Part shown: one piece after another, positions 15,890 through 47,344 of the stretch | Layout of the letters: every line of letters starts with the position of its first letter | How positions within the stretch are numbered: the stretch's first letter is position 1 | From: Parvicellaceae bacterium | GTDB taxonomy: Bacteria > Bacteroidota > Bacteroidia > Flavobacteriales_D > Parvicellaceae | Direction of reading: 5' to 3' | Length of the DNA: 64,000 nt | NCBI GenBank assembly: GCA_965267315.1 | Contig: OZ253949.1 | Location: 806,781-870,780, forward strand | Made by a program: the position numbers and the translations under genes | Notes under the pieces: model-generated | What the model was told of the DNA's origin: nothing | The model's database searches: none | Seen by the model: only the letters and a program-made list of their open reading frames with translations

Positions 15890-16128
15890 TGACTTCTAAA
15901 ATAGGTGTATCTAAAGGTATGTCCACTACTTCTCTCGATTTTTCCCTTCTCGGTAAGGCACAAATAAGAAAAGTTTTATATTTGCCGTCCGCAACCAAGT
16001 ATGTGACTAGTGAGATCACGTCATAATGGTTGAAACGCTTCTTTAGCTTCCGCCTCCAATGCCTTTACGGCGGACGGGCAACTTCGCTAAAGAGGTGGGG
16101 AACCGACGGTAGTCGTTAACATACAAAC

Positions 16129-16202
16129 GCTTCTTTAGCTCAGTTGGTTAGAGCATCTGACTGTTAATCAGAGGGTCCTTGGTTCGAGCCCAAGAAGAAG
16201 CG
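16129..16202 (+). tRNA. tRNA-Asn (anticodon GTT)
   Basis: Hand-folded cloverleaf. Acceptor GCTTCTT/AAGAAGC, D-arm GCTC-AGTTGGTTA-GAGC, anticodon stem TCTGA/TCAGA with loop CTGTTAA, T-arm CTTGG-TTCGAGC-CCAAG, discriminator G. Confidence 0.85.
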
Positions 16203-16520
16203 CTAAAACATTAAAACCAGCCTTGTGCTGGTTTTTGTGTTTTATGCTATTGTGATTGGTGCTGGGCGACGCCAGGAGCCAGCCCAAGAACTGAGGAGTG
16301 CTTAGCACGACGACCTCATCCACGAGTGAAACGAGTGGGTAACAAAGAAGCGCCAAACAAAAAATGCCTCAGTGAATGCTGGGGCATTTTTTGTTTGGCC
16401 TGTTTTGGGCGGCTGACGCCAGGAAGCGCCCAAGAACCGAGGAGCTTGCGACGAGCTCACGACCGAACGAAGTGAGGAAGTAACTAGAAGCGCTAAATAA
16501 AACATACCTTCTTCATTTAG
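16203..16520 (+). repeat. Two degenerate ~140-bp direct repeat units downstream of tRNA-Asn, each ending with a copy of the tRNA 3' end (AGAAGCGCYAAA)
   Basis: Core GACGCCAGGAGCCAGCCCAAGAACTGAGGAG vs GACGCCAGGAAGCGCCCAAGAACCGAGGAG. Unit ends at 16346-16358 and 16487-16499 echo the tRNA terminus 16195-16207. Confidence 0.6.
16364..16392 (+). terminator. Rho-independent terminator after repeat unit 1
   Basis: ATGCCTCAG-TGAATG-CTGGGGCAT hairpin followed by TTTTTT. Confidence 0.6.
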
Positions 16521-16611
16521 AGCCATCAGTAAAGCAAGCCACTTACATCGTACATTGAAATTAATCTGCCGCAATCGCGTATCTTTATTTTACAACTTGA
16601 AATCACAGTAA

Positions 16612-17673
16612 ATGAAACTTCTGGTATCCGTATTTCTTCTGCTCAATTGTATGGCTTTGGTTGCTCAAAACGTAAATATTCCGGACTCCAGTTTCAAAGC
16701 TTATCTGGTTAACGACACGCGCATCAACACGAATGGCGACAGGGAAATACAACTTTCTGAGGCAAAGCAGTTTTCCGGAACCATTAGCTGTGCAAAATTG
16801 AAAATCACGGATCTCACAGGTATAGAAGCCTTTACTTCGCTAAGAGGTCTCAAGTGTGAAAACAACAACCTAACGGAACTGAATCTCGGCGCCAATACAA
16901 GCCTTACCAGCTTGCGCTGCTCTTACAATCAACTAAAATCTTTATCTGTCGTTGGGCTGCCCTCGCTCAGAACACTTTTTTGCGACGGCAATATGCTTAC
17001 GGAGTTTGTTGTTCCGGATTCATCGGCTCTGGAAAAGTTAGATGTAGGCTTCAATCAGCTGGCAAAACTCGATGTATCAAAAGGCCTTGCGCTAAAATCT
17101 ATTAAATGCACCAAAAACAGATTAACCTCAGTAGACGTAAGCTCTAATTTAGAGTTGAACTCCTTTAATTGTGCTCAAAATGAGATTCGGTCATTGGATT
17201 TTTCCAAGAACCTAAAGCTGGATTATTTAAAATGCAACCTCAACAAGATTAGTAGTATTAACGTGGTAAGCAATTCCATGCTCAAAACGTTACTGTGCAG
17301 AGACAATCAGTTGTCTCAGTTGGACGTGTCAAATAATACTCTGTTAAAGAGTTTTAAGTGCGACAGAAATCTATTCACAAACATTGATATTAGCAAAAAT
17401 GAGCGTTTAAAGACCTTTACCTGTGATGAGAACCGACTTACAAACCTTAACATTTCTCACAACCCCTTGCTCAGCTTCTTTTCGTGTAGCGGTAACCCAT
17501 CATTAACCTCTGTAAATGCGGTAAATGGAAACAATGCCAAAATGCGAACCTTTATTGCGAATCAAAACCCCGGTCTAACCTGTATAATGGTAGATGATGT
17601 GCTTTGGAGCCAGGCTAAATGGAAAGATGGTGTAGACTCAGTTGGTGTCTTTCAAAAGGAATGTAATCATTAG
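16612..17673 (+). CDS. Leucine-rich repeat (LRR) secreted protein
   Basis: Signal peptide. About 14 tandem 22-aa LxxLxCxxNxLTxLDVSxN repeats. Confidence 0.8.
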   Translation: MKLLVSVFLLLNCMALVAQNVNIPDSSFKAYLVNDTRINTNGDREIQLSEAKQFSGTISCAKLKITDLTGIEAFTSLRGLKCENNNLTELNLGANTSLTSLRCSYNQLKSLSVVGLPSLRTLFCDGNMLTEFVVPDSSALEKLDVGFNQLAKLDVSKGLALKSIKCTKNRLTSVDVSSNLELNSFNCAQNEIRSLDFSKNLKLDYLKCNLNKISSINVVSNSMLKTLLCRDNQLSQLDVSNNTLLKSFKCDRNLFTNIDISKNERLKTFTCDENRLTNLNISHNPLLSFFSCSGNPSLTSVNAVNGNNAKMRTFIANQNPGLTCIMVDDVLWSQAKWKDGVDSVGVFQKECNH

Positions 17674-17677
17674 CAAA

Positions 17678-18085
17678 TTACTTGCTAATGAAGTTGAACT
17701 TAACCGAAGTTAGTTCCTCAAACTCTCTGCCTGCCTGTTCAATATCTTCATCCATTTCATCGTAAACCCAATCTATTTCTACATTTATTTTTTCAGACGA
17801 AGTGTTGATTTCGTTGATCTTTAAAATAAGATCCATAATGTACTTGGCTGATGAAGAATTGAAATATTCAAACCGGAATTTAACCCGGTGGTTTTCTTCT
17901 CTTTTAAACTGCTGAACCCTGTAATACAACTGGCCTCCCCAGTTCTCGATCCATTCTTTTACCGGTTTGTAGAATTCCGCAACGTTCTCCGGTCGGCTTT
18001 CTCCCTGAATTACATAGTTTCCGGTGTCAAGGTCAAGGTCAACCTGAGGGGTGTTGTCGGTTCCAGAAATTTTTAGTGGTTTCAT
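17678..18085 (-). CDS. SiaC-family (DUF1987) regulatory phosphoprotein
   Basis: 135 aa. N-terminus MKPLKISGTDNTPQVDLDLDTGNYVIQGESRPENV...W matches the DUF1987 consensus. Lies 18 bp downstream of the PP2C gene. Confidence 0.65.
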   Translation of the reverse strand: MKPLKISGTDNTPQVDLDLDTGNYVIQGESRPENVAEFYKPVKEWIENWGGQLYYRVQQFKREENHRVKFRFEYFNSSSAKYIMDLILKINEINTSSEKINVEIDWVYDEMDEDIEQAGREFEELTSVKFNFISK

Positions 18086-18103
18086 AGGTCTTTCTTCTCT
18101 CTA

Positions 18104-20020
18104 TTAAATTCGGATTCCCAGGATTAATATATCGTCTATTTGTTCGCGGTCGCCTTTCCATCTGGTGAGGGTTTTTTCCAATTCTGCGGCTTGTAAATTT
18201 GCTTTCTTCGCAGCCAGGTCTTTGAGCAACTCCCGGAATCGTTTGGGATAAAACTTTTTCCCTTCGCTTCCTCCTTTTTGGTCGTAGAAACCATCGGAAT
18301 ATAGATATATCATTTCCCCGGAATCAAGTTGAAGAGTGGTTTGGTTAAAGTCGGTGTGATTTTGGTGATAACCCAAATGCATAGCACTTCCCCGAATTTC
18401 ATCCATCTTATTGCCCGATACACGCAACATGGAATTTCTAGACCCCGCGAACCTGAGTTCCTTTTTCTCCCGGTTCACGTTTATCACAACAACATCCATT
18501 CCGTCTTTTACCGAATCATCAGATTTATCGCTCCCAAACAACTCGTACAAATCCTCATTCAGGCGCCCCAGGATCTTTTCCGGTTCCCGCAGCTTTTCCT
18601 GTTTTACAATTTTCTCTACAGTACTAATGGCCAAAACAGACATCAATGCCCCCGGAACACCATGTCCCGTACAATCTGCCAATATTATCACGCAGTCCGT
18701 TCCATTATTATGGCACCACGAAAAATCTCCCGAAACAATGTCTCTGGGTTTGTTAAAAACAAAATGCTCCTGAAATGTGTCGGCCAGCATATAATTACTG
18801 ACCAAAAGCGCATCCTGAATTTTTCTGGCATAATTAATACTGTCGGTAATGTTTTGATTCTTCTTATCCAGCTCGGCATTTTGCTCTGCAATTCTGATGT
18901 TCTTGTGCTTTAATTTTTTGTTGTTGCTCACAAATACAAAAACCAGAATTAGCACCAGCATACAAGCTACACCGGCACCAACCAACCAGGCTTGTGTTCT
19001 GGCTTGCTCCGCCTCCGACTGCCTCAGTTCTGCATCTTTACGGGCTGTTTCTAGTTCGATTCTCTCCAGTTCCTGCTGTTGCGCCGCTGCCTCTTGTTCC
19101 TTTAGCATCAACTCTTTCTGCTGGTTCAGCAACTTTAACTCCTTTACCTGGTTTTCCACACTGAGATGCTCTATTTCTTCAATAGACTTCAGGTTGGCCG
19201 AGCGCATGTCCTGGATGTAGTTTTCAGTTTCTTTGATTCGGTCTTCGTCAAACTCGGTAATAGCATTGTGTTTAGACTCATTCCCTGACTCTACCTGCTT
19301 TATGGTGCTGCGAATTGACCCGATCGAGGAAAGATTATTGGTTACAGCCAATTCTTCAGCTTGTTTTAACCGCTTCAGAGCTGTTTCGTAGTCTCCGTAA
19401 TTTGAATAAACACCTCCCAGGTTTAGAAGTAGTGTTGCCTGATCGGACGGGCTTGGGTTGCTCTCATATATCTTATTTGCTTTCTCATATTCCTCAATTG
19501 CTTTTTTTAAGCTCCCCATGGAGTAATAATTAAAAGCCATTTTTGCGATGATTTTGGCTCTCTCCACTTGTGCATAATTGTTGGAGGCAAGGGCAGAGCG
19601 GTAGGCCTCATTAGACTCCTTATATTTTTTAACATTGGCATAGCTGAACCCTATCGATTCGTAACAATACCCCGTTAAATCGTTCATTTTTTGCTTTTCC
19701 GTAATGGCTGTGGCCTTTTTAAAATAATCAACAGCATCAGCAAACTTTTTTGCCTTTTTGGTCGCGTTGCCGCCATTAACCAAACCTCGTAGCTGCTCAT
19801 TCTCGTTAGAAGAAGATTCAGCCAGCTGAATTGCCCGGTCCGCATAATCTTGAGCCTCTGCGTAATTCTTATCGGCGGTCAATTTCTCGGCAATGGTGTT
19901 GGCAATACCAGCTTTATTAGCGTCTGAAGCTTGATCTAACTGAGTCTTCAATTCGTCAATTCCTTGTGCCCAAACGGTTACACAACAAAAGGATAATATG
20001 ACCAGCACTAGTTGTTTCAT
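18104..20020 (-). CDS. Membrane PP2C/SpoIIE-type Ser/Thr phosphatase with extracytoplasmic TPR sensor domain and coiled coil (SiaA-like)
   Basis: Signal peptide, TPR repeats, long coiled coil, TM (WLVGAGVACMLVLILVFVFV). PP2C motifs DFSWCH...LADCTGHGVPGALMS...DGMDVVV...YLYSDGFYDQ. Confidence 0.8.
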   Translation of the reverse strand: MKQLVLVILSFCCVTVWAQGIDELKTQLDQASDANKAGIANTIAEKLTADKNYAEAQDYADRAIQLAESSSNENEQLRGLVNGGNATKKAKKFADAVDYFKKATAITEKQKMNDLTGYCYESIGFSYANVKKYKESNEAYRSALASNNYAQVERAKIIAKMAFNYYSMGSLKKAIEEYEKANKIYESNPSPSDQATLLLNLGGVYSNYGDYETALKRLKQAEELAVTNNLSSIGSIRSTIKQVESGNESKHNAITEFDEDRIKETENYIQDMRSANLKSIEEIEHLSVENQVKELKLLNQQKELMLKEQEAAAQQQELERIELETARKDAELRQSEAEQARTQAWLVGAGVACMLVLILVFVFVSNNKKLKHKNIRIAEQNAELDKKNQNITDSINYARKIQDALLVSNYMLADTFQEHFVFNKPRDIVSGDFSWCHNNGTDCVIILADCTGHGVPGALMSVLAISTVEKIVKQEKLREPEKILGRLNEDLYELFGSDKSDDSVKDGMDVVVINVNREKKELRFAGSRNSMLRVSGNKMDEIRGSAMHLGYHQNHTDFNQTTLQLDSGEMIYLYSDGFYDQKGGSEGKKFYPKRFRELLKDLAAKKANLQAAELEKTLTRWKGDREQIDDILILGIRI

Positions 20021-20571
20021 GCGTTAAGCCGAATGGTCACTTCCAATAAGAAGAATTTTTTAGTCGCATCTACATCCTGAAAAGTATAACCCATATTCCC
20101 TTCGCTGTTAAGGGCTATCTGAAGCATTCCCAACCCAGCACCACCTTTGTCGGAAAGCTCTCCTTCCACCAGTTGTTTTTGATAGGCTTCTTTCAGTTGC
20201 TCCTGGGTTTTATTCTTTAACGGTTTAATGCGCGACTCCAGCTCTTCGATAGCTTCGGTTCTTACCATGTTCCCACTGTGAATAATAATCGAATCACCCA
20301 CACGAGAAACGTTTACAATTCCGAAGCGGTCTCCCGATTCAACGTCTTCCGTGGTGTGGCGGGTAATGTTCTCAATACATTCAACAAAACTCGAGTACAC
20401 TTTCTTAAAAATGATTCGTTCCATCTTGTCGGAGTCCAGGTTTTCCTTTAGCGTATTAATCAGGTGGTTTGAAATCTTAAAGGAGATATTTCCGAAATAG
20501 CACATCAGAATCTCATGATCCTTAAGGTCTTCGAACAGAGAGTAGACATATTTAGGTGAAATCCGGGTCAT
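20017..20571 (-). CDS. SiaB-like small protein kinase / anti-sigma-type ATPase-like protein
   Basis: 184 aa. ATGA overlap with the PP2C gene. GGAGLGMLQIAL G-rich motif as in GHKL/anti-sigma kinases. Gene order kinase-PP2C-DUF1987 matches Sia-type modules. Confidence 0.5.
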   Translation of the reverse strand: MTRISPKYVYSLFEDLKDHEILMCYFGNISFKISNHLINTLKENLDSDKMERIIFKKVYSSFVECIENITRHTTEDVESGDRFGIVNVSRVGDSIIIHSGNMVRTEAIEELESRIKPLKNKTQEQLKEAYQKQLVEGELSDKGGAGLGMLQIALNSEGNMGYTFQDVDATKKFFLLEVTIRLNA

Positions 20572-20791
20572 ATTCGGACATTTTTATTCTTCTGAGGAAA
20601 GCTACAAAACATGGATGAATTGAGTACAACGAATAGAACTCAAATTGAAAATCCCTTTTATTTAACCCTATTTCTGCACGTAATAATTCGAAAAATTGCG
20701 ATTTGTTTACTAATATTAGGTCGTACCCGGCACTTGGCGTGGGTCGAGAGATTTATTGAGTACATTTGATCAAAATTTTGAATAACTATCT

Positions 20792-21598
20792 ATGAAAAGT
20801 CTATTGGTTCCTGTCGATTTCACGGAAGTCGCAAGAGTAGCGATGGAACACGCTGCGAAGCTAGCTGAAACAATTGGTGCGGATGTGGTTCTTTTGCACG
20901 TGGTTGGCAAGGCTGAAGAAGTAGCAAAAGCCAAAGAAAAATTAGCGGAAGAAGCAAAGATCATTTCCGACTCTGCCTCATCGGTAAATGTGCGAATTGC
21001 GGTTCGGATAGGAAGTATTTTCGAAGACATCGCCCAAACAGCTGCTGAAGAAAGTGCCGAACTCATTATAATGGGTACTCACGGCGCAAAAGGTTGGCAA
21101 AAATTGGTAGGTAGTCACGCCCTGAAAGTGATTACAAGTTCAAAATCTCCTTTTATTGTCGTACAAACCAAAGGAATTAAGCCAAATGGATATGACGATA
21201 TTGTGGTGCCAATGGACTTGAACAACTATTCCATGCAGAAGCTTGAACTGGTAGCAGACATGTCCAAATACTTCGATTCCAGAGTTCACGTAATCGCAGA
21301 GCGTGTAGAAAGCGCAGCCCAAAAAGTAAAAAACAACTTAATTATTGCGCATAAATACCTTACCGAAAAAGGTGTAAAGCACGATTCTAAGGTTGCCGAA
21401 AAGGCTGGCGGATTTGACGAACAAGTAATTGAGCACGCGAAAAAAGTTGATGCGGATTTGATTGCGATTATGAACGACGGTGAAGCCATGTTCGGAGACC
21501 GACATGCTCAGGCAATGATTACTAACACAGCGGAAATTCCTGTGATGACCGTTAACGCCAGAGAAAGTGGCGGTGGTGGTACAGTGTTCTCGCGATAG
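20792..21598 (+). CDS. Universal stress protein, tandem UspA domains
   Basis: Two USP repeats (LLVPVDFTE...VVLLHVV...LIIMGTHGAKGWQKLVGSHALKV and the second half). ATP-binding G-x2-G-x9-G(S/T) pattern present. Confidence 0.85.
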   Translation: MKSLLVPVDFTEVARVAMEHAAKLAETIGADVVLLHVVGKAEEVAKAKEKLAEEAKIISDSASSVNVRIAVRIGSIFEDIAQTAAEESAELIIMGTHGAKGWQKLVGSHALKVITSSKSPFIVVQTKGIKPNGYDDIVVPMDLNNYSMQKLELVADMSKYFDSRVHVIAERVESAAQKVKNNLIIAHKYLTEKGVKHDSKVAEKAGGFDEQVIEHAKKVDADLIAIMNDGEAMFGDRHAQAMITNTAEIPVMTVNARESGGGGTVFSR

Positions 21599-21623
21599 AT
21601 TAACACCAATCAAAAAGACTAAG

Positions 21624-21657
21624 AAGTCGTGTCTCTTAACAGGCACGACTTTTTTTG
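21624..21657 (+). terminator. Rho-independent terminator after the USP gene
   Basis: AGTCGTG-TCTCTTAACAGG-CACGACT hairpin plus TTTTTTT. Confidence 0.6.
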
Positions 21658-21910
21658 TGGTCTGCTAGCCTTTTTAAGCTGGTGCTTTGGGATGTCCATG
21701 GCTACCAGAAACTGGCCGACCGTTGTGAAAATTTCGGCTCGCAAGTTTTCGAACTGTCGATTAGCCAATCCTGGTGATCGCCTCCATTACTGAACGAGCA
21801 TAGAGATAGGCCGTTTCCAACTAACCAATGAACTGCCTGAATACGGTGGACACCAATTGATCCCTAATTTTGTGGCATCAAACTCTGTTTTGTAATAACA
21901 CGAAGGAGTG

Positions 21911-24900
21911 TTAGTCTTTGTAATTATCTTCCTTCAACCGCTCCTTAATCTTTTCCAGGTGCATCATCTTTTTCTCCTGTCGCAGTTCAATGGCACTTTT
22001 AGTAAAGTACTTGTGCTGAGTCAGAAACTTCACCTGAATCTCATCCCAAAGACGATCTGAGTTGATTTTACCGTGTTCTCTTAACTCTCTCCGGAGCGTA
22101 TCGGCAATTTTAGGAAAGTCATCTCGCCCCAGATAATCAAGGTCGGCGTCGCAAATGATTTCCTCCAGGTGTGATTGTGGATTGTGCGGAATAATGGTTG
22201 CATAAATGAGCTTAAATACCTTCTCCACCTGCTCAGGGGTATAGCCATACTTGGGTAGTATTTCCGCTGCCATGCGCGCCCCTATCGGTTCGTTGGCATC
22301 ATATTGCTCCACGAAGCCTGCATCATGATAGGTCGCCGCAGATTTTAAAACGAAAATGTCTTCATCCAGTACGCCCTCCATAATAGCAAGTCGCTCTGCC
22401 GCTTCTACGACATCATAGGTATGATGGATACCGTGATAATAAAGCTTCGGAGATAACTTCTGCTTTAGAATACGCATAATGTGTCGCTCCGCTTTCTGAT
22501 AGTTGATCGAACTATAGACGTGTAGGTTCACGTAGTCCCAGAACCTGCGGTTTGGCGTTACTCCATCTCCATCCTCAGACAGGTGTGGTTTAATCCCGTC
22601 CACAAAATACATATCGATATGGCCTTTGTTTTTCGCAGGGATTTTTCCTCGATAAGTACAGTCAAAATAGGGCTCAATGTATTCGAACGTCTTTCCGGAT
22701 ATATTCACCTTACCAACTTCACCACTTTGTTCCATTCTGGCCGCAATGTTTACTGAATTGCCCCAGATATCATAAGCAATTCGCTTGGTGCCAATTACAC
22801 CAGCAATTACCTCTCCTGTATGAATTCCAATCCTCAGATCCCAACCTTCCGCCGGTTTTCCGGCAGCAATTGCGTGTTGCTTGGATTTCCTTACATAATT
22901 TTGGATTTGCAGGCCTGCAATAACGGTGTTAATGGGGTTCTCCTTATCTCTCAGCGGAACCCCTCCAGCCGCCATGTAAGCATCTCCAATTGTTTTGATT
23001 TTCTCAATATGGTTGGATTCTACGATTTGATCAAACTCCTTGAAATAGTTGTCGAGAATTCTAACGAGCTCCTGCGGTCTGAAGTCTTCTGCATGACTGG
23101 TAAAGCTTTTAAAGTCCGTAAACATAACCGACACTCGCCGGTAATTTCTTGTCCGTGCTTTGCCTTTATTTTTAAGCTCTTCGGCTGTTTCTTCCGGCAA
23201 GATGTTTGCCAGAAGTTTATCGGCTTTTTCCTTTTCCATCTCCACCATATCTTTCTGGCGTTCGAGATGCTGTTTTTGCTCCTGTATTTTTTCTTTTTGC
23301 TCGGTTATTGTCCGGGTTCTTAATTCCACCAGCCTGGCAAGTGTTTCCTTTTGGTTCTTAATAGATCTTATCCTGATCCTCTGAACGGCTACTACTAAGG
23401 CTATGGCCAGCACAATGAGCAACCCTCTAAACCACCAAGTTTGCCAGAACGGAGGAGTGACGGTAATTTTTAGCGTTGCCGGAACTTCAGACCATTTACC
23501 ATCAGAATTGGAGCCATACACCTTAAAGGTGTAGGTTCCCGGAGAAAGGTGGTTGTAGTATGCCTCCCGCCTGTTGCCAACTTCATTAAACTTGGTTTCA
23601 TCCCCTTCCAGAATGTATTTGTATTGGTTTGCCTCGGAATTCGTGTAGTGCAGCGCCGCAAATTTGATGGTTAAATTGGTTTGCGTGTGATCGAGAACTA
23701 TTTCTTTGGCAAAGGACGGTGCCTGATTCAAAATTTCACCTTCACCCACCGCTAACGGCTGGTTAAACAACAATACATCTGTAATTGCCATTCTTGGTCG
23801 CCTTTGGTTTTCCTGGATATTCTTTGGATAAAATGCGTTAAACCCGTTTATCCCTCCAAAGAACAATTCTCCGTTTTTAGATCGGTAGTAAGCTCCGGTA
23901 TTGAACTCATTACTCTGCAACCCATCCGACGCGAGATAAGTGGTAAATGTTTCATTTACAATTTCCAGACGGCAAACTCCCAGGTTTGTGGTCATCCAGA
24001 GCGAACCGGGTTCTCCGCCCATCACTCCGTATACCGCGTTGTTTGAAAGACCGTCTTTCTCCGTATAGGCTTTAAATTTCTTAGTAACGGGGTCAAGCCG
24101 ATTCAATCCGCCCCCATAAGTTCCAACCCAGATGGCTCCTCCTGGTTCTTCCCAAATGGACAGAACTACATCTGAACTGATCGAATTAGGGTCAGAAGGG
24201 TTGTTTCGGAAGGTTCTAAAATTAAACTCCTCCATATCTCCCGGGCGAGTTATGGTTAATTTGCACAATCCGCCCTCAGTTGCAATCCAGTAATTTCTCT
24301 TGGAATCGATGACCAACGAACGACATATGTTGGTTGGCAACGTATTTGGATCGTCGATACTGTGTTCAAAAAACTTTGATTCGCCAGTTCTGGTGTTGTA
24401 CCGCCCCAGGCCTTCCCGGCAACAAATCCATATAAACTCACGATCACGGGTTAACTCATATACCCGATGATATAGTTTACCATCCGGCCGGAAAATTACC
24501 GGCTCGTACCATGCGGATTCGAAATCGGGTGATGTTTTAAGGCGGTAAAGACCATCAATTGTTCCCACCCAAATTTGTCCTCTTTCATCAAACTCAATTG
24601 CGTTGACACTATTATTTCCGGGCGCATCAGGATTGCTTCCCTGAAACTGGTAGTTGTTTACCTTAAAATTTTCTCTGTCTATTCGGGCAACTCCTTCACG
24701 TGTACCCACCCAGATGATTCCGGCGCTATCTTTTCTGATCGTCCAGATATTTTCATCAATCAGCCCATTGTCTCCAAAATCTCCTTTTATGTGGTCGAAG
24801 GCTTGTTTAACGGGATCGAATTTGCTAACCCCCCCGTTGGTTCCAATCCAAATAGAGCCAGAGGCATCGGCAATCATGCTGAAAACAATAGGGTTGATCA

Positions 24901-25858
24901 GGCTCGTTCGGTCGAAGTCGTTGGCAGAAAAATTGGTGACATTAATTTTTCCGTTCCGAAAATTCACTTCATCCAGGCCTGCCCCTTCGTACCCACACCA
25001 CACCAGTCCGGAGGTGTCCGAAAAAACGACTTTCACGTTATCTCCAGACAGCCCGTCTTCTATTCCATAATTGGTGAAACTGCTACCATCAAACAGACTG
25101 ATACCTTTGTCTGTAGCAACCCATGTTCGGTTCTTGTGATCCTGGAAGATATCGTTAACGAAATCTCCCCCAATTGACTTCTCGTTTTGCTTGTCTGACC
25201 GGAAATTATTGAAGGTTTTGTGATTTTTCTGCAGGACATATAGTCCCTTGCCTTGTGATCCAACCAAAATGTCACCGCGCTCATTGATTCCGATCTTATT
25301 GATCGTTGAAGCTGAGATGCCATTTTCAGCATCGTATTCTGTGATTGTAGAGTCCGGCACATGAAACTTGATCAATCCTCCGTTCTCTGAACCAATCCAG
25401 AGGTTGTCATCTTTATCCATGGCCAAAGCCAAAATCTGCCCCTTTTCGATGATGTCGTGTCCCTGAAGCCGATGAAATTGTCTGGTTCTTGGGTTAAAAG
25501 AATTTACACCCCCGCTTTCAGTTCCAATCCAAAGCATCCCGTCCCTTCCCTGGATAATCGTTCGAATGAAACTATTGCTAAGAGAATTTGCGTTTTCCGG
25601 ATCGTGTTTGAAAACCTGAAAGGAATACCCATCAAATTTATTCAGCCCTTCTTGAGTGCCCAGCCAAATAAAACCCTGTGCATCCTCAAGCATGCAGTTT
25701 ACGGAACTTTGTGAAAGCCCCTCCTCAATAGAGTAGTTGTCGAAACGAATGCTGCGCATTTGCGCCATAGAGGCGCCAGCGATTAGTAACAATAAAGAAG
25801 ATATCAGGCGTTTCATGCGATCCTCGTCGAAAAGAAAAAGCCTCGATGCTAAAATCAA
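21911..25858 (-). CDS. Sensor adenylate cyclase: periplasmic two-component-regulator propeller + Y_Y_Y domain, TM, coiled coil, class III nucleotidyl cyclase, C-terminal HD-domain phosphohydrolase
   Basis: Signal peptide. Repeated Reg_prop-like beta-propeller blades (W.GT..GL). Y_Y_Y segment then TM (WFRGLLIVLAIALVVAV). Cyclase motifs MFTDFKSFT (metal Asp), KTIGDAYMAAGG (Lys plus Asp), YDIWGNSVNIAARME (adenine-specifying Asp, Asn, Arg). HD motifs HGIHHT...ATYHDAGF...DADLDYLGRDD. Confidence 0.85.
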   Translation of the reverse strand: MILASRLFLFDEDRMKRLISSLLLLIAGASMAQMRSIRFDNYSIEEGLSQSSVNCMLEDAQGFIWLGTQEGLNKFDGYSFQVFKHDPENANSLSNSFIRTIIQGRDGMLWIGTESGGVNSFNPRTRQFHRLQGHDIIEKGQILALAMDKDDNLWIGSENGGLIKFHVPDSTITEYDAENGISASTINKIGINERGDILVGSQGKGLYVLQKNHKTFNNFRSDKQNEKSIGGDFVNDIFQDHKNRTWVATDKGISLFDGSSFTNYGIEDGLSGDNVKVVFSDTSGLVWCGYEGAGLDEVNFRNGKINVTNFSANDFDRTSLINPIVFSMIADASGSIWIGTNGGVSKFDPVKQAFDHIKGDFGDNGLIDENIWTIRKDSAGIIWVGTREGVARIDRENFKVNNYQFQGSNPDAPGNNSVNAIEFDERGQIWVGTIDGLYRLKTSPDFESAWYEPVIFRPDGKLYHRVYELTRDREFIWICCREGLGRYNTRTGESKFFEHSIDDPNTLPTNICRSLVIDSKRNYWIATEGGLCKLTITRPGDMEEFNFRTFRNNPSDPNSISSDVVLSIWEEPGGAIWVGTYGGGLNRLDPVTKKFKAYTEKDGLSNNAVYGVMGGEPGSLWMTTNLGVCRLEIVNETFTTYLASDGLQSNEFNTGAYYRSKNGELFFGGINGFNAFYPKNIQENQRRPRMAITDVLLFNQPLAVGEGEILNQAPSFAKEIVLDHTQTNLTIKFAALHYTNSEANQYKYILEGDETKFNEVGNRREAYYNHLSPGTYTFKVYGSNSDGKWSEVPATLKITVTPPFWQTWWFRGLLIVLAIALVVAVQRIRIRSIKNQKETLARLVELRTRTITEQKEKIQEQKQHLERQKDMVEMEKEKADKLLANILPEETAEELKNKGKARTRNYRRVSVMFTDFKSFTSHAEDFRPQELVRILDNYFKEFDQIVESNHIEKIKTIGDAYMAAGGVPLRDKENPINTVIAGLQIQNYVRKSKQHAIAAGKPAEGWDLRIGIHTGEVIAGVIGTKRIAYDIWGNSVNIAARMEQSGEVGKVNISGKTFEYIEPYFDCTYRGKIPAKNKGHIDMYFVDGIKPHLSEDGDGVTPNRRFWDYVNLHVYSSINYQKAERHIMRILKQKLSPKLYYHGIHHTYDVVEAAERLAIMEGVLDEDIFVLKSAATYHDAGFVEQYDANEPIGARMAAEILPKYGYTPEQVEKVFKLIYATIIPHNPQSHLEEIICDADLDYLGRDDFPKIADTLRRELREHGKINSDRLWDEIQVKFLTQHKYFTKSAIELRQEKKMMHLEKIKERLKEDNYKD

Positions 25859-25974
25859 GGCTTTAATTCAATTGAAAGATATAGAAATTTTATTCACCTC
25901 GAATGGTTTGCCAATCTTCGCCATGGTCAGGCCCGTTGTTGATTTTCATTTTAACTTCGTAACAAGTATCAGGA

Positions 25975-26841
25975 ATGCACTTCATTTCAATTATACGGCC
26001 ACGGCACTGGGTGAAGAATCTCTTCGTGTTGATGCCGCTTTTTTTTGCGGGAGAATTCCTGAATCCACTCGCCTTTCAAAACGCAATTCTGGCAGCATTT
26101 GGTTTTTGCCTGGTCGCCAGCTCCATTTATGTGATCAACGATTTAAGGGACGCGGAAGTGGATCGGCTACACCCAACAAAGTCGCTACGCCCGATTGCCT
26201 CAGGTAAAATAAACTCAACTACGGCTATTATTCTGGCTTTAGGATTAGTATTGGCGGGAACCGGCGTAGGCTTCTTCGTAAACGTATGTGTGGTAGGTGG
26301 CTTTCTCGCCTATTTTGTCATGAATGTGGCTTACTCCTTCTATCTAAAGAATATTGCGATTGTAGATGTAGTAATTATTGCCTCTGGCTTCGTTATCAGA
26401 ATATTTGTAGGTGGGTTTGCCTGCGACATTCCTATTTCCAAATGGCTGGCTTTAATGGTGTTTTTGGTGAGTTTGTTTATGGGCTTTGCAAAGCGAAGAG
26501 ACGATGTTTTACTGTTACAAAAAACCGGTGTAGAGGCGCGCAAGAATATAGCGCAATACAGTCTCAAGTTCATCGACATTTCCATGGGAATGATCGGCGC
26601 TGTAGTAATGGTTTGTTATGTTATGTACACTATTTCCGATGATCTAAAATCTCGAATTGACTTCGATTATACTTATGGAACATCCATCTTTCTTTTGATT
26701 GGTTTATTGAAGTATTTGCATAGGGTAATAGTTCAGGAGAAAACTGGTGCTCCGGTAAAAGTATTGTTTAGCGACCTGGTGATCTTAACGTCGCTGGTTC
26801 TGTGGGTTTTTGTGTTCTTTCTATTACTCTATCTACACTAA
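25975..26841 (+). CDS. UbiA-family polyprenyl-phosphate phosphoribosyltransferase (decaprenyl-phosphate 5-phosphoribosyltransferase, Rv3806c-like)
   Basis: NDLRDAEVDRLHPTKSLRPIASG motif with 8-9 TM helices. ATG start at 25975. Stop overlaps the next start (TAATG). Confidence 0.75.
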   Translation: MHFISIIRPRHWVKNLFVLMPLFFAGEFLNPLAFQNAILAAFGFCLVASSIYVINDLRDAEVDRLHPTKSLRPIASGKINSTTAIILALGLVLAGTGVGFFVNVCVVGGFLAYFVMNVAYSFYLKNIAIVDVVIIASGFVIRIFVGGFACDIPISKWLALMVFLVSLFMGFAKRRDDVLLLQKTGVEARKNIAQYSLKFIDISMGMIGAVVMVCYVMYTISDDLKSRIDFDYTYGTSIFLLIGLLKYLHRVIVQEKTGAPVKVLFSDLVILTSLVLWVFVFFLLLYLH

Positions 26842-28913
26842 TGGAAAAAACGATCAGCAACTGGGGAAACTACCCGAAACAAAGGGTAAACGAGTGGAAT
26901 CCTTCCTCCGAAAGAACCTTGCTTGAGGCGATCAACAAATCAGGGAATATCATCGCTCGCGGATTGGGTCGATCATACGGAGATGCCTCTTTGGGAAAAA
27001 CGGTTCTGTCTACCGTTCACTTGAATCGCATTCTTGAGTTTAACTCTGGTTCAGGTGTTCTGATTGCCGAATGTGGGGTTAGTCTGGAACAGATCATTGA
27101 AGAAATACTGCCCAAAGGGTGGTTTCTTCCGGTAACGCCTGGAACCAAGTATGTAACCATGGGTGGTGCCATTGCCGCTGATATACACGGTAAAAACCAC
27201 CATGTTGAAGGCTGCTTTTCACGGTACATCCAGTGGTTCGACATCATTATTGAATCCGGTGAAACTCTTCGTTGTTCCGACTCCGAAAACACAGATCTTT
27301 TCCATGCCACATTCGGCGGGATGGGCCTTACCGGTGTTGTAATTCGAGCCGCTCTCAGATGCAAGAAGGTGGAAACCTCGTATATCTACCAAACTATTCA
27401 GCCGTGTTATGATTTAAAAGAGCTATTAGAAAAAATAGACCAATCTATCAGTTCTACTTACTCCGTTGCGTGGATTGATTGTTTCACCAAAAACGGGGTG
27501 GGTAAGGGAATTCTCATTACAGGAGAGCATGCCACAACCAGTCAGTTACCGGCAAATAACCAGAAGCTTAGCGTAGATCATCCGCAAAAGCGGTCGGTTC
27601 CATTTTTCTTTCCCTCATGGGCACTTAGCAAGTTGTCTATAAAAGTGTTTAACCAACTCTACTTTAGAAAACAAAGGCGTAATTCAGGAACGAGTGTAGT
27701 GAACTACAATGCCTTTTTCTATCCACTGGATGCTATCAAAAACTGGAATAGAATATACGGTCGAAATGGGTTTATTCAGTATCAGATGGTAATACCTACG
27801 GAATATGCTCACGAAGGTTTAACAAGACTCTTGTCAGTAATTAAGGAAAAAGGCTATGGTTCGTTTTTAAGTGTTCTAAAATTATTCGGGGCCGAAAACA
27901 AACTACTTTCCTTTCCTTCTTCTGGTTATACATTGGCATTGGATTTTCCGGCCAAAAAAGAGGTTTTTGATCTGGTGCATGAACTTGACGAAATCGTTTG
28001 TAGTTATGGTGGAAGGATTTACCTTGCAAAGGATGCCACTACAACGGCAGTGGACTTTAAAAAAATGTACTCGGATCAAACCGTGCAATTCACCGCCATC
28101 CGAAAAACCCATAATCCAACCGGGAAGTTCAGGTCTTCCCAATCAGATAGGGTGCAATTAACTACTGATGAAAAACTCTCAGAACCATCTATGAATCAAC
28201 CGAAGTCAATTCTCGTTCTTGGAGCAACGTCGGATATTGCCCGGGCAATTGCCAAAGAATATGGTAAACAGGGATACCAACTGTATCTCGCGGCCAGAAC
28301 TCCCGCCGCAATTACTAAATCCGAGTGGCCTGCCGACAGCTCTGTTCAAGAATTCAATGCCCTTGATTTTGGCTCGCATGCAGATTTCGTGCACAATCTC
28401 GGAATCGTTCCTGACATTGCTCTAATTGCTTTTGGGTACCTGGGAGACCAAAAGGAAGCGGAGGTAAATTTCGATGAAGCAAAGTTGATTCTCGACACCA
28501 ATTTTACCGGAGCGGTTTCCATTTGTGAGGCACTGGCAGATGCAATGAAGAATGTAGGAAAGGGCTCCATTATAGGAATTAGTTCTGTGGCTGGTGATCG
28601 TGGTAAAAAGTCCAACTATATGTACGGCGCCGCCAAATCGGGTTTTACCGAGTTCCTTTCGGGGCTGAGGCATCGTTTACATGGCTCCGGTGTGCATGTG
28701 CTCACCGTAAAACCGGGTTTCGTAAAAACCAGAATGACTGAAGGAATGGATTTGCCTCCCAGGCTAACCGCCAGCGTGGAGCAGGTCGCTAAAGCAGTAG
28801 TTAAAGCAGAGCGGAAACACAAGAACGTGCTTTATGTTAAGGCAATATGGCGACCAATTATGTTCATTATCCGCTGTTTACCACACAGCATCTTCAAAAA
28901 ATCAGATTTATAG
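26841..28913 (+). CDS. Fused DprE1-like FAD-dependent oxidase (N-terminal) and DprE2-like short-chain dehydrogenase (C-terminal)
   Basis: N-terminal GLGRSYGDASLG FAD/PCMH-type oxidase domain of ~450 aa. C-terminal SDR ILVLGATSDIARAIAKEYG (cf. DprE2 LLLGGTSEIGLAI) with S...YMYGAAK catalytic Tyr/Lys. I prefer ATG 26841 over the track's GTG 26802. Confidence 0.8.
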   Translation: MEKTISNWGNYPKQRVNEWNPSSERTLLEAINKSGNIIARGLGRSYGDASLGKTVLSTVHLNRILEFNSGSGVLIAECGVSLEQIIEEILPKGWFLPVTPGTKYVTMGGAIAADIHGKNHHVEGCFSRYIQWFDIIIESGETLRCSDSENTDLFHATFGGMGLTGVVIRAALRCKKVETSYIYQTIQPCYDLKELLEKIDQSISSTYSVAWIDCFTKNGVGKGILITGEHATTSQLPANNQKLSVDHPQKRSVPFFFPSWALSKLSIKVFNQLYFRKQRRNSGTSVVNYNAFFYPLDAIKNWNRIYGRNGFIQYQMVIPTEYAHEGLTRLLSVIKEKGYGSFLSVLKLFGAENKLLSFPSSGYTLALDFPAKKEVFDLVHELDEIVCSYGGRIYLAKDATTTAVDFKKMYSDQTVQFTAIRKTHNPTGKFRSSQSDRVQLTTDEKLSEPSMNQPKSILVLGATSDIARAIAKEYGKQGYQLYLAARTPAAITKSEWPADSSVQEFNALDFGSHADFVHNLGIVPDIALIAFGYLGDQKEAEVNFDEAKLILDTNFTGAVSICEALADAMKNVGKGSIIGISSVAGDRGKKSNYMYGAAKSGFTEFLSGLRHRLHGSGVHVLTVKPGFVKTRMTEGMDLPPRLTASVEQVAKAVVKAERKHKNVLYVKAIWRPIMFIIRCLPHSIFKKSDL

Positions 28914-29501
28914 ATGAACCTGGCACTGTTCGATTTTGATGGTACAATTACCAGAAAGGACAGCTTCGCCAGCTTCCTGCGGTTTCTAAAGGGAGACCTT
29001 GCGTTTGCGTGGTATCTTTTTTTGAGCGCTCCCCATCTGTTAGGTTGGAAATTAAGCATGGTTTCGGCGAAAAGAGCAAAGGAAAGACTGTTTCAGTTCT
29101 ATTTTAAAGATGTTTCCATACTTGAAATGCAGAAATGCTGTGAGGATTATCTCCCCCATCTGGAGAAACTTGTAAATCCAATGGCGGCAGAAAGGTTAAA
29201 ATGGCATCAGGACCGGGGCGACCGGGTAGTTATAGTAAGCGCCTCGTGCGAGGAATGGCTCGAATTGTGGTGTGAAAAAATGGATGTAGAACTGATCGCG
29301 ACAAAGCTAGAGAGATCGGCTAAAGAGAACGTTTACACAGGAAAAATATCTGGTGCAAACTGTAACGGACAGGAAAAAGTAAACCGCATCCGCCAGTTGC
29401 TGAAACCCGATCAATACAAGCAGGTTTTTGCCTACGGAAATAGTAAAGGCGATCTGCCCATGTTAGAACTAGCCACCGAAAAACATTACCGATACTTCTA
29501 G
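28914..29501 (+). CDS. HAD-superfamily (HAD-IB) phosphatase
   Basis: DFDGT motif I at the N-terminus (LALFDFDGTITRKDSF). C-terminal GNSKGDLPM motif IV. Start abuts the previous stop. Confidence 0.75.
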   Translation: MNLALFDFDGTITRKDSFASFLRFLKGDLAFAWYLFLSAPHLLGWKLSMVSAKRAKERLFQFYFKDVSILEMQKCCEDYLPHLEKLVNPMAAERLKWHQDRGDRVVIVSASCEEWLELWCEKMDVELIATKLERSAKENVYTGKISGANCNGQEKVNRIRQLLKPDQYKQVFAYGNSKGDLPMLELATEKHYRYF

Positions 29502-31187
29502 ATGCTTGAGCGATTGAAAAATATTCCAGAGCGTAAAGTGCTTCTACTATTTTGTATTAGCTGGTTCAGCTTAAACTTATTACAGGCGATATACTCCACT
29601 CTCGCCCATGATGAAGCATACTATTGGGTTTGGGCACAAAATCTGGATTGGGGCTTCTACGAACATCCTCCGATGGTCGCCATGTTTATCAAAATAGGCT
29701 CCACGCTATTAGGAGGGGAAGTAGGTGTAAGACTACTTACGGTAATCACCTCTTCTCTTATTATCTACTGGACTTACGTCCATCTGGTAAGGCGTGGGGT
29801 GTGGTTATACATTGTGTTGGTGATTTCCGTTCTGATGGCACATGCTGGAGGGGTACTAACTGCGCCTGATACCCCGCTTGCCTTTTTTACCTGTTTGTTC
29901 TACATTTTCTTCAAAAAGTACCTCGATTCTGATCGCTGGAAAGTGTGGCTTCCTCTAACCCTGATTGTCGCCGCGATGATGTACAGCAAGTATCACGGCA
30001 TTCTTATTATCGGCTTTTGTTTCCTGCTTAACTTCAAACTTCTAAAGCGGCCCAGTTTTTGGGTTATTACCATGGGGTCGCTGCTGATCTATTCTCCTCA
30101 TTTATTTTGGTTGTTTTCGTTTGGTAAAGGCGGGCTAACCTACGCTCTTAACGACCGCTTTCAGGAACATCTGGAACTTCGACATTTTACTGAGTACCTC
30201 TTAGGGCAAATTCTAAGTTTCGGACCTTTCATTGGCATAATTTTATTATTTGCAGCCCTCTTTGGAAAGGTGCAGGACGCTTTCGAGAAAACCTTGCGTA
30301 GATTGGTAATCCTCGTTCTTGCGTTCTTTCTGATTTGGTGTTTTCGAGGACATATTAACGCCAACTGGACTGCCCCGTTGTTTATTCCAATCCTGATATT
30401 GTCACATCGTTACATCCTGAAGAGGCAGAAGTTGAAAAAAGTAGTGTTTGGGCTCGCCATCCCCAGTGTTTTAATCATACTGCTAGTCCGCGCCCATTTG
30501 GTGTTTGACTTTATTCCATTGTCGCGACATGATAATCGGGACAATGAATTTGTAGACTGGACCGAGTATGCCGGGGAGGTTGATGCCTTAGCCAAAGACG
30601 CCCCTGTACTGGTTGGAAGTTACCAAACCGCATCCAAGCTTTGGTTTTATCGACAGAAACAAACTCTCCCTATTAATGACGGCGATCGCAAGCAACAGTT
30701 CTATGTTTGGGATCATTTATATAAGCCTCTAGCCGATCAGCGAGTATTGATTATCGACAAAGAAATTCCGAGTCCAGATGGGCAAATTGATGAAGTTGGA
30801 GACACCATGAACTACGTTTTTGTAAATGGTTTTACCAGCTACCGAACTGTGGAAATGGAATTGGTGGATTCGGCTCCTGTTGTAGCCTCACCTGGTTCTA
30901 AGGTTGATTTAACGGTTTTGGTCAGGGCTCCAAAGAATGGATGCATTCAGCCAGAAGGTACAGTTTCACACCCTGGGGGAGTGTTTTATACCGTTTATGG
31001 TGATGGGATTCGGGTGGGTGGGTCCTTATGCCATATATTTCACGACGAAGTTTGCGATAGCACTACTATTCCTGTGCAAATTCAAGCTCCTGATCGACCG
31101 GGAATTTATTCTTTCAGCCTTCGAATGAGTACACATCAGGCATTGCTTTGGTGGTCGCCGCTGCAATATGATCTGGTTGTGGAATAG
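29502..31187 (+). CDS. GT-C fold glycosyltransferase (ArnT/PMT, GT83/GT39-like) with a ~200-aa C-terminal extracytoplasmic domain
   Basis: 11 or more TM helices. First-loop AHDEAYYWVWAQ (DE..Y motif of polyprenyl-P-sugar-using GT-C enzymes). Translationally coupled to the upstream gene. Confidence 0.75.
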   Translation: MLERLKNIPERKVLLLFCISWFSLNLLQAIYSTLAHDEAYYWVWAQNLDWGFYEHPPMVAMFIKIGSTLLGGEVGVRLLTVITSSLIIYWTYVHLVRRGVWLYIVLVISVLMAHAGGVLTAPDTPLAFFTCLFYIFFKKYLDSDRWKVWLPLTLIVAAMMYSKYHGILIIGFCFLLNFKLLKRPSFWVITMGSLLIYSPHLFWLFSFGKGGLTYALNDRFQEHLELRHFTEYLLGQILSFGPFIGIILLFAALFGKVQDAFEKTLRRLVILVLAFFLIWCFRGHINANWTAPLFIPILILSHRYILKRQKLKKVVFGLAIPSVLIILLVRAHLVFDFIPLSRHDNRDNEFVDWTEYAGEVDALAKDAPVLVGSYQTASKLWFYRQKQTLPINDGDRKQQFYVWDHLYKPLADQRVLIIDKEIPSPDGQIDEVGDTMNYVFVNGFTSYRTVEMELVDSAPVVASPGSKVDLTVLVRAPKNGCIQPEGTVSHPGGVFYTVYGDGIRVGGSLCHIFHDEVCDSTTIPVQIQAPDRPGIYSFSLRMSTHQALLWWSPLQYDLVVE

Positions 31188-32776: not shown

Positions 32777-33331
32777 TTATTTGTTAGCTTTCACAAGTAG
32801 TATTTCACCGCTTACCACGTCTTGCACCGTAATAAGGGTTCCGGTTGTTATTTCCTCATCTTCGTCGCAAACAGCATCTAGTTCCCGGAGCGCACCCTGC
32901 ACACGTATTTGGACTTTACCAAAACCGGTTCTTCTAGGAGGAATCGTTAAATAAACTTCTCCTATTCCTCCTATGGCATTTTTTACATCCAGCGTACCGC
33001 TTTCCGTAAGTCGCGACATAAAATAGAAAATTAGTCCGAGTACCACCATCATGGCCAATCCTGCTATAGTGGATATGATTACTGTTGTTCCGTTGGTTAG
33101 ACCTGCATCAATACAGGTTAAGCCGGTCCAACCGAAAATGGTAAAGAAACCAACCAGGTTTTTGAAGGTTAAAAATTGGAATCCTATGTCGGCTTCAACG
33201 TCCACATCAACATCCGCATCCCCTCCAAAGAAATTGATAATTAAAAGTATCACTAGAATGACGCTAAATATGATCGCCATCCACCAATATGCTTGTTCAA
33301 ATGCTCCCGTGGAGCTCCACCATTCTGACAT
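32777..33331 (-). CDS. NfeD-family membrane protein (YuaF-like) with C-terminal OB-fold
   Basis: Multi-TM N-terminus plus C-terminal OB domain (GIGEVYLTIPPRRTGFGKVQIRVQGALRELDAV). Canonical partner immediately upstream of flotillin. Confidence 0.7.
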   Translation of the reverse strand: MSEWWSSTGAFEQAYWWMAIIFSVILVILLIINFFGGDADVDVDVEADIGFQFLTFKNLVGFFTIFGWTGLTCIDAGLTNGTTVIISTIAGLAMMVVLGLIFYFMSRLTESGTLDVKNAIGGIGEVYLTIPPRRTGFGKVQIRVQGALRELDAVCDEDEEITTGTLITVQDVVSGEILLVKANK

Positions 33332-46915: not shown

Positions 46916-47344
46916 TTACTGTGGTTGATTTTGAGCCCAGGCTTTCTTTGACGCCTCATAATCTGCACGGATTCGAGCATCTTCCTGACTGTCCCTTGCT
47001 TTCTTTCTTAACCGGAAGAAGACGAACAGGTTGAAAAAGTGCATAAAGCCGAGCACTAAAATGATTAGCCCGAGCTTTACACTCAAAACCTCTATCATTT
47101 CTTGAGCAGACAATACAGTAGAGGTGGTTTTCAGAGCAAAGACCGTGTACCCGAAATTGATAAGGTAAAAACCCGTGAGTAAGAGCTTGTTTACACTATT
47201 TGCCAGATCCTGTTGGCCACTGAAAATATCAATCAGAAAAATTTTACCGTTTTTGAAAAGGGTTCTTGCTACCCAAACGGTTAATCCTATAGCTATCGCG
47301 GTATAGGCAATATACAAGATGACTTTATAATCCATAATGTTCAA
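46916..47344 (-). CDS. Small 4-TM membrane protein
   Basis: 142-aa hydrophobic ORF, translationally coupled (20-nt overlap) with the upstream ORF. Confidence 0.45.
   Translation of the reverse strand: MNIMDYKVILYIAYTAIAIGLTVWVARTLFKNGKIFLIDIFSGQQDLANSVNKLLLTGFYLINFGYTVFALKTTSTVLSAQEMIEVLSVKLGLIILVLGFMHFFNLFVFFRLRKKARDSQEDARIRADYEASKKAWAQNQPQ

Follow-up and report, generated by a model that had tools for sequence, protein, structure and literature searches.

Introduction

The SiaABCD system of Pseudomonas aeruginosa (PA0172-PA0169) is a partner switch that controls the diguanylate cyclase SiaD, and switches of this type govern the formation of biofilms in Pseudomonas. Its phosphoprotein SiaC (hereafter PaSiaC) is phosphorylated on Thr68 by SiaB and dephosphorylated by SiaA (PMC7647112), which in Pseudomonas responds to membrane perturbation (PMC12834913), and it binds the stalk helices of SiaD with the acceptor residue inserted between them (PMC8457831). 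In the literature that we searched, SiaABC appears only in Pseudomonas and always as an activator of SiaD; we found no paper there on Sia-like modules outside this genus, and none at all on the family DUF6272. Here we analyze a stretch of 64,000 nucleotides from a Parvicellaceae bacterium (contig OZ253949.1, positions 806,781 to 870,780; hereafter the window), in which three adjacent genes on the minus strand code for relatives of SiaB, SiaA, and SiaC, and no GGDEF gene was found. Judged by its family membership and by its intact catalytic and acceptor motifs, this trio is a genuine SiaABC-type partner switch, and we give about even chances to the reading that it is functional and gates a neighboring pair of genes, coding for a sensor adenylate cyclase and a universal stress protein (USP), and with them cyclic AMP (cAMP), rather than a nearby GGDEF protein.

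The likeness of the locus to SiaABCD extends to all three families, namely a GHKL-like kinase of the SiaB type, a SiaA-type PP2C module with an N-terminal helical extension, and a DUF1987 protein of the SiaC type. It also includes a tightly packed operon, a membrane-anchored phosphatase with an extracytoplasmic sensor, and an acceptor loop that reads Y-x-N-[ST]-S-S-x-K-x-x-M-D in both systems. The two differ in that the window locus lacks siaD, or any GGDEF gene, and has the order B-A-C instead of A-B-C-D, in the acceptor residue, which is Ser in the window protein and Thr in PaSiaC, and in the sensor of the phosphatase, which comprises a signal peptide, TPR, a coiled coil, and one transmembrane (TM) segment where SiaA has two TM segments and HAMP. 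Moreover, SiaD-contact residues are replaced at the window locus and a second SiaA-like PP2C lies nearby. The STAS-based enzyme switches, such as HptB-HsbR-HsbA/HsbD of P. aeruginosa, BgrSTUWV/BgrR of Sinorhizobium meliloti, and RsbU/V/W of Bacillus, follow the same logic: a PP2C and a GHKL kinase set the phosphorylation of a small protein on Ser/Thr, and this protein binds the target when unphosphorylated. SiaC is structurally related to STAS (PMC8457831). In contrast to these switches, the window phosphoprotein belongs to DUF1987 and not to Pfam STAS, its kinase is of the DUF6272/SiaB type and not of the RsbW/HATPase_c_2 type, and the locus has neither a sigma factor nor a GGDEF partner linked to it.

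Results

A SiaB-SiaA-SiaC-Like Trio

The genes for a SiaB-family kinase (20017-20571, 184 aa), a phosphatase that we call TPR-PP2C (18104-20020, 638 aa), and a SiaC-family phosphoprotein (17678-18085, 135 aa) all lie on the minus strand. The stop of the first and the start of the second share the letters ATGA, a 4-bp overlap, and a spacer of 18 nt ('tagagagaagaaagacct') separates the stop of TPR-PP2C from the start of the SiaC homolog. Coordinates and spacings agree exactly with the preliminary description of the locus, which had been made from the sequence alone, and the overlap and the short gap fit a single operon. Beyond it, the stop of a convergent LRR gene lies 4 bp from that of the SiaC homolog. 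A scan of positions 16000-26500 for sigma-70 promoters and terminators gave fewer promoter-like matches than shuffled sequence, with a consensus that is wrong for Bacteroidota.

The 184-aa protein, previously described as kinase-like with a GGAGLGMLQ motif (residues 143-151), passed both the curated cutoff of the SiaB-family kinase model NF038262 (137.9 bits, cutoff 85) and the threshold of Pfam PF19788, DUF6272 (107.5 bits, threshold 26.6). In the profile searches it matched DUF6272/SiaB models only, and no HATPase_c_2 anti-sigma model. The structure of P. aeruginosa SiaB (PaSiaB, PDB 6kko_A) aligned to residues 14-178 (E = 1.9e-9); the conserved box E64-x3-N68 fell on the E61 region of PaSiaB and the Gly-rich box G144-A-G-L-G on the GAGLG of 6kko_A. 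From these profile and structure matches we classify the protein as a SiaB-family, GHKL-like Ser/Thr protein kinase. The 135-aa protein scored 102.4 bits against PF09345, SiaC/DUF1987 (gathering threshold 24.5, E = 1.7e-29), as expected from its earlier assignment to DUF1987, and the PaSiaC structures (PDB 6kko_C/6k4f) matched its residues 2-130 (E = 3.6e-11). The structure of the SiaA PP2C (PDB 6k4e) matched residues 369-637 of TPR-PP2C (E = 1.3e-43), a stretch that takes in the helical extension ahead of the catalytic core. Each member of the trio can be aligned directly with a solved P. aeruginosa structure, and its designation as SiaB/SiaA/SiaC-like therefore stands. Scores against the equivalog models were lower: 74 bits for the kinase (NF038264, cutoff 225), 75.4 bits for the SiaC homolog (NF038265, cutoff 150), and 201.3 bits for TPR-PP2C (NF038263, cutoff 700), of which the SiaA model aligned residues 369-638 only. 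Because all three fall below these cutoffs, we regard them as family members and not as orthologs of the P. aeruginosa proteins.

To place the trio among its relatives, we used a set of 98 loci with SiaB or SiaC relatives, of which 11 came from genomes, 7 from a context look-up, and 80 from metagenomes. The labels L001-L103 denote related loci that were compared with the window, L012 being identical to L013. The window proteins include type IX secretion system (T9SS) sorting domains and SprB repeats and are Flavobacteriales-like, and the closest relatives of its genome are metagenome-assembled genomes of Parvicellaceae and Crocinitomicaceae. SiaB-SiaC pairs, mostly accompanied by a PP2C, occur in the large majority of the 98 loci, so the arrangement of the trio is not due to chance. 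The SiaC family itself exceeds 3,000 clusters at 50% identity. SiaC also occurs as adjacent paralog pairs and in fused proteins, with about 260 aa for tandem SiaC-SiaC and about 300 aa for SiaB-SiaC (L023, L035, L037, L039, L052, L067, L087, and L094; representatives P0301, P0303, and P0420).

A Serine at the Predicted Acceptor Site

Alignment with PaSiaC Thr68 places the predicted phospho-acceptor of the SiaC homolog at Ser77, whose codon we read directly at 17855-17857 on the minus strand. The acceptor position anticipated in the DUF1987 protein could thus be located, while its identity had to be revised, as the residue is Ser and not the expected Thr. In this column each of the 26 Bacteroidota-type homologs has Ser, and only PaSiaC has Thr. 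The acceptor loop Y74-x-N76-S77-S78 is conserved in the SiaC homolog, and the motif EYFNSSSAKYIMD hardly varies among the 26 Bacteroidota-type sequences. Twelve residues of PaSiaC have been listed as contacts with SiaD (PMC8457831). At these positions the window protein keeps the residues of the acceptor loop, and 4 of the 12 are replaced, with R, A, D, and A standing for Y31, I71, R103, and L107, respectively. Among Bacteroidota-type SiaC proteins the first two replacements are invariant and the last two nearly so. Since the acceptor loop is kept while four SiaD contacts are replaced, the pattern fits a protein that would still be recognized by its kinase and phosphatase and would present a different surface to its target.

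The Phosphatase Carries a TPR Sensor

All the segments formerly noted in the 638-aa protein were found: an N-terminal hydrophobic, signal-like segment (residues 1-19), TPR matches (39-225), a charged, heptad-rich, coiled-coil-like segment (about 255-340), a single TM segment (about 346-365) followed by the basic stretch SNNKKLKHK, and a SpoIIE domain (442-637). The metal-site motifs of PP2C are complete (GDF431, DCTGHG449, SDG575, and DD629), and none of D432, D449, D576, and D629/D630 varies in a set of 36 full-length PP2Cs that are linked to SiaB or SiaC. From the signal-like segment, the one TM segment, and the basic stretch after it, we predict that the TPR array is extracytoplasmic and the PP2C domain cytoplasmic. 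The sensor had been described as an extracytoplasmic TPR array rather than HAMP only; its extracytoplasmic position is supported by the predicted topology, but TPR occurs in 18 of the 36 linked PP2Cs, with HAMP in 12 of them, so it is not peculiar to the trio. RyR domains were seen in 4 of the 36.

The N-terminal part of TPR-PP2C recalls the periplasmic-TPR sensors of Bacteroidota, such as the histidine kinase FimS of Porphyromonas gingivalis and the DUF6377/SusR-type regulators. They have in common a signal peptide, TPR, a coiled coil, and a single TM segment, and there is a weak likeness to the FimS model NF053520 (residues 4-386, E = 5e-5), besides matches to DUF6377 and SusR. Unlike these sensors, TPR-PP2C has a PP2C as its output instead of a histidine kinase or a DNA-binding domain, and its scores lie far below the family cutoffs.

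No GGDEF Gene Near the Trio

The absence of a GGDEF gene from the locus, already noted for the trio, was confirmed for the whole window in all frames. The motif GG[DE]EF does not occur in its six frames, GGDEF probes gave no tblastn match, and Pfam scans found no GGDEF domain in the window open reading frames (ORFs) of at least 120 aa, a set that takes in neither the small ORFs clustered at 46916-49073 nor those contained in longer ones. Likewise, the 98 related loci gave no GGDEF match in the ±10 kb around the SiaC homolog, and the motif is not present in the 981 ORFs called in them. As the defining GGDEF output was looked for in the window and not found, the locus is not a SiaABCD system.

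Adenylate Cyclase and USP Genes Beside the Trio

Two genes conserved beside the trio, which were overlooked in the earlier note, are, by synteny only, the best candidates for the output, singly or together. The first, divergent from the SiaB gene across a 220-bp intergenic region, codes for a tandem USP of 268 aa (20792-21598, plus strand; PF00582 in two stretches, E = 3.2e-25), with the nucleotide motif G95-x2-G-x8-G-S in its first domain only. USPs can bind cAMP, with Rv1636 as precedent (PMC11107214). An alignment of the intergenic region across nine genomes, inspected for elements such as a CRP-like site, revealed only short conserved AT-rich stretches.

The second gene (21911-25858, minus strand) is a 1315-aa ORF with Guanylate_cyc, Reg_prop, Y_Y_Y, and HD domains, which we refer to as cyclase-HD. 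Its true start is likely the MKRL codon at 25816, which would give a protein of about 1300 aa. In order, it comprises periplasmic Reg_prop/Y_Y_Y domains, a TM segment (810-830), a stalk (about 60 aa) that includes a transducer helix, a class IIIa cyclase domain, and HD. The cyclase domain scored 162.5 bits against Pfam Guanylate_cyc (E = 1.1e-47) and found its best PDB matches in AC9, AC5, AC8, and mycobacterial Cya; the motifs FTDF, KIKTIGDAY, and YDIWGNSVNIAARME align to AC9/AC5 and to mycobacterial Cya. Because the six canonical residues are all present (the two metal-binding Asp, the adenine-specifying Lys/Asp, and the Asn/Arg), we predict that the protein is an active adenylate cyclase. 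The C-terminal HD domain (21911-22570) has an intact H...HD...D motif and an AlphaFold model with a pLDDT of 93. In a fold search its nearest relatives were YpgQ-type HD pyrophosphohydrolases and class I cyclic nucleotide phosphodiesterases, at marginal E-values, so that a hydrolase role is possible. Fusions of cyclase and HD domains are very widespread in Bacteroidota, with more than 7,900 matches. The cyclase stalk (window 23200-23440) is one heptad (7 aa) longer in trio-linked genomes than in L099, L101, and L102. We considered stalk length as a diagnostic of linkage to the trio and discarded it, as the stalk of L103, which has no Sia genes nearby, is longer still.

The block cyclase-HD/USP/SiaB/TPR-PP2C/SiaC is intact in the window and in L001, L003, L012 (=L013), L018, and L019 and is cut by a contig end in L002, L004, and L020, which makes nine distinct loci in total; the USP gene adjoins the SiaB gene in all nine loci where the contig reaches that side. 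The block is kept although TPR-PP2C is just 48-53% identical and both outer flanks vary, and it tolerates inserts between the cyclase and USP genes, namely a T9SS cargo gene in L012 and a 107-aa ORF in L003 and L018. Outside this clade, a USP-SiaB-SiaC arrangement was found once: in L027 the three genes point the same way, separated by 9 and 11 bp, and neither a cyclase nor a PP2C gene lies near them. A general partnership of USP with Sia proteins was tried with a Usp hidden Markov model and rejected, as this single extra-clade case is near chance expectation; the tandem USP family is large, at 2,258 matches.

Other Bacteroidota lineages show a different neighbor. In about 25 loci an ABC-2 transporter of about 1030 aa, a second candidate class of Sia output, is divergent from SiaB-SiaC. 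It was set aside as a general output since it occurs in other clades only and is absent at this locus. Its presence there agrees with a proposal in the literature that a DUF1987 protein modulates whichever protein adjoins it (PMC8457831), and it suggests that outputs are lineage-specific. The transporter consists of ABC_tran, ABC2_membrane, and an unassigned 270-aa N-terminal region with a weak TerB-like match (E = 1.3e-3); examples are L031 (6309-9401), L005, L007, L011, L034, L053, and L068, where a convergent HAMP-PP2C is also seen.

A Second, HAMP-Type PP2C

On the far side of the cyclase gene, the window encodes a second PP2C (33511-35451, minus strand) with HAMP and SpoIIE domains. With TM segments at 17-39 and 250-272, it has the SiaA-like architecture of two TM segments, HAMP, and PP2C. 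Its four metal motifs are all present, and it scores higher than the trio phosphatase against the SiaA model NF038263 (240.8 bits, cutoff 700). The gene had been described as an orphan, which it is not: it is the last of a co-directional run made up of ferritin, a 182-aa ORF, a YfiR-like protein, a secreted TPR protein, and HAMP-PP2C. The YfiR-like protein (36744-37268, minus strand; PF13689 YfiR/HmsC-like, E = 1.5e-28) has a signal-like N-terminus, as does the secreted TPR protein (35632-36741, minus strand), and it stays below the cutoffs of NF053591 (91 against 125) and sequest_YfiR (18 against 85). The arrangement is reminiscent of YfiBNR (TpbB) of Pseudomonas and E. coli in that a YfiR-like gene lies two genes upstream of a HAMP enzyme with two TM segments, with a secreted TPR protein between them. 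It differs in that the HAMP protein carries a PP2C and not a GGDEF domain, no YfiB-like lipoprotein was identified, a TPR protein stands in between, and the YfiR models score below cutoff. A YfiR-like gene and a HAMP sensor also lie about 5 kb from SiaB-SiaC in the unrelated metagenome loci L082 and L086.

The run abuts the cyclase gene directly in L001 and L003, beside the cyclase-USP-trio block, and in both the secreted TPR and YfiR-like genes are co-linear. This synteny lends support to the earlier proposal that HAMP-PP2C could feed the same phosphoprotein, and the enzyme is probably a second phosphatase input. No further SiaB, SiaC, or STAS-like substrate gene was found in the window, which leaves the SiaC homolog as the sole recognizable PP2C substrate nearby. 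Between HAMP-PP2C and the cyclase lie the minus-strand genes of a Band_7/SPFH protein (31278-32747, E = 5.8e-29) and of a 184-aa protein with two TM segments and no family match, possibly NfeD-like (32777-33331); these two are possible members of the neighborhood module. The latter has the length of SiaB and was examined as a second SiaB, a candidacy dismissed on its two TM segments, the lack of a family match, and its pairing with Band_7.

The more distant locus L099 (USP 54% and cyclase 47% identical to those of the window) reads HAMP-PP2C/2-TM ORF/Band_7/cyclase-HD/145-aa ORF/USP, that is, the order of the window without the trio and without a five-gene insert on the plus strand (25975-31187). 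In L101 the cyclase gene and the orthologous USP gene are 4 kb apart, and the interval holds genes for a TPR-sensor histidine kinase and a response regulator. The orders in L099 and L101 imply that the cyclase-USP pair and its link to HAMP-PP2C are older than the arrival of the trio, and different signaling modules have gathered around this pair. L102 and L103, whose cyclases are about 44-54% identical, have no Sia, PP2C, or USP neighbors.

The block at 25975-31187 codes for a UbiA prenyltransferase, a fused FAD-oxidase/ALO with a short-chain dehydrogenase (DprE1/DprE2-like), an HAD-IB phosphatase, and a PMT_2 GT-C glycosyltransferase, a set reminiscent of a pathway for polyprenyl-phospho-sugar donors. 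Band_7 and the cyclase, which are neighbors in L012 and L099, are split by this block in the window, so that it has the look of an insertion. A second PMT_2 gene lies at 42865-44346.

Other Features of the Window

A multi-PAS HisKA_2 histidine kinase and a LytTR response regulator are encoded at 54023-57784 on the minus strand. The same pair is found in L103, near RNase R, ferritin, and the cyclase, which suggests a wider conserved synteny of signaling genes in this chromosomal region. A tRNA gene (16129-16202, plus strand, 72 bits), the sole match of an Rfam scan of the window, occupies the gap before the LRR gene, and a hairpin with a perfect-looking 20-bp stem (16352-16399) follows about 150 nt downstream of it.

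Discussion

We propose that the SiaB-family kinase would phosphorylate the SiaC homolog on Ser77 and that TPR-PP2C would remove this phosphate in response to a periplasmic cue sensed by its TPR/coiled-coil domain, with HAMP-PP2C and the YfiR-like periplasmic protein as a probable second phosphatase input. Unphosphorylated SiaC would then bind a target and modulate it, both the partner and the direction of regulation being put forward tentatively. Our first choice of target would be cyclase-HD, to whose dimeric stalk helix SiaC would bind as PaSiaC binds to the stalk of SiaD. Like GGDEF domains, class III cyclase domains work as dimers and are driven by a coiled coil on their N-terminal side, and it is this, together with the analogy to the SiaD stalk, that makes the cyclase stalk the preferred target. 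The second choice would be the tandem USP, which may alternatively act downstream as a cAMP- or ATP-binding effector. With either target, the switch would gate cAMP signaling and not cyclic di-GMP (c-di-GMP) signaling.

Several observations keep our confidence in this proposal at the level of an even bet. The link to the cyclase and USP is synteny within one family-level clade, and the block could be a single inherited arrangement. The trios of Vicingus (L014/L015, order A-B-C) and of L023 (order B-A-C, with two SiaC genes) have no cyclase or USP nearby; conversely, Sia genes are absent from the vicinity of the cyclase orthologs in L099, L101, L102, and L103, and the only extra-clade USP-SiaB-SiaC case is the near-chance one in L027. 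Within the block itself, the cyclase gene belongs to another transcription unit than the trio, from which the divergent USP gene and variable inserts separate it, the USP/SiaB intergenic region holds no conserved operator, and the one-heptad difference in the stalk is a correlation only. Finally, our search for GGDEF covers 64 kb of a 4.38-Mb genome, and a GGDEF protein may be encoded elsewhere.

This last point leads to the first alternative, a canonical Sia switch whose output, a GGDEF cyclase or some other enzyme, is encoded elsewhere in the genome, the cyclase and USP being unrelated genes kept by descent. It is consistent with the fraction of the genome covered, with the restriction of the cyclase/USP adjacency to one clade and its lack in distant trios, with the SiaB-SiaC pair being the sole universally conserved unit, and with the existence of orphan SiaC genes. 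However, GGDEF genes are missing within ±10 kb in all 98 loci, the SiaD-contact residues are replaced, the block has outlasted rearrangement on both flanks and internal insertions, and PP2C modules of two different kinds have come to lie around the same cyclase. We estimate that this explanation has roughly one chance in five of being right. A bolder form of our own proposal, which we hold to be comparably improbable, is that SiaC directly gates the class III adenylate cyclase through its stalk. In that case SiaABC would be a regulator that can be transferred among palm-domain nucleotide cyclases in general, with TPR-PP2C and the YfiR-modulated HAMP-PP2C as inputs that converge on cAMP and the USP as a local cAMP-binding effector.

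Somewhat less probable still is that the tandem USP is the direct partner, to which unphosphorylated SiaC binds or which SiaB binds or phosphorylates, and acts as a nucleotide (ATP/cAMP) effector to which the cyclase is connected only indirectly. The 220-bp divergent region that it shares with SiaB in every clade member with that side present speaks in its favor, as do the tight co-directional arrangement of L027 without cyclase or PP2C, the nucleotide motif kept in the first USP domain, and the precedent of a cAMP-binding USP. Against this stand the sheer size of the USP family, the near-chance frequency of the one case outside the clade, and the USP orthologs of L099, L100, and L101, which have no Sia genes alongside; no interaction between SiaC and a USP was reported in the literature that we searched. 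Least likely, and in our judgment improbable, is a logic of the RsbW/RsbV type, in which the SiaB-like kinase would sequester a transcription or sigma factor encoded elsewhere until unphosphorylated SiaC released it, giving a transcriptional output: SiaC is structurally related to STAS anti-anti-sigma factors, SiaB is a GHKL protein like the anti-sigma kinases (PMC8457831; PMC7647112), and the SiaB-SiaC core is conserved while its neighbors vary, but the models that this kinase matches are those of DUF6272/SiaB, not of HATPase_c_2, neighbor clustering gave no recurrent sigma factor gene beside the pair, and in Pseudomonas the output is bound by SiaC and not by SiaB (PMC8457831).

The family assignment of the trio is routine with current profile libraries. 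What the locus adds is that the systematic absence of GGDEF neighbors, together with the embedding of the trio among a cyclase, a USP, and a second PP2C, yields a specific, testable hypothesis for a large uncharacterized signaling family, whose Bacteroidota-type SiaC proteins never stand beside a GGDEF gene in the sampled loci. If the cyclase is indeed the output, this would be the first reported case of partner-switch control of cAMP synthesis, and the mechanism of SiaC would transfer between two structurally related classes of cyclase. Signaling through c-di-GMP is thought to be sparse in Bacteroidota, and finding the targets of the Sia modules would define the function of a large signaling family in a phylum thought to be poor in this second messenger.

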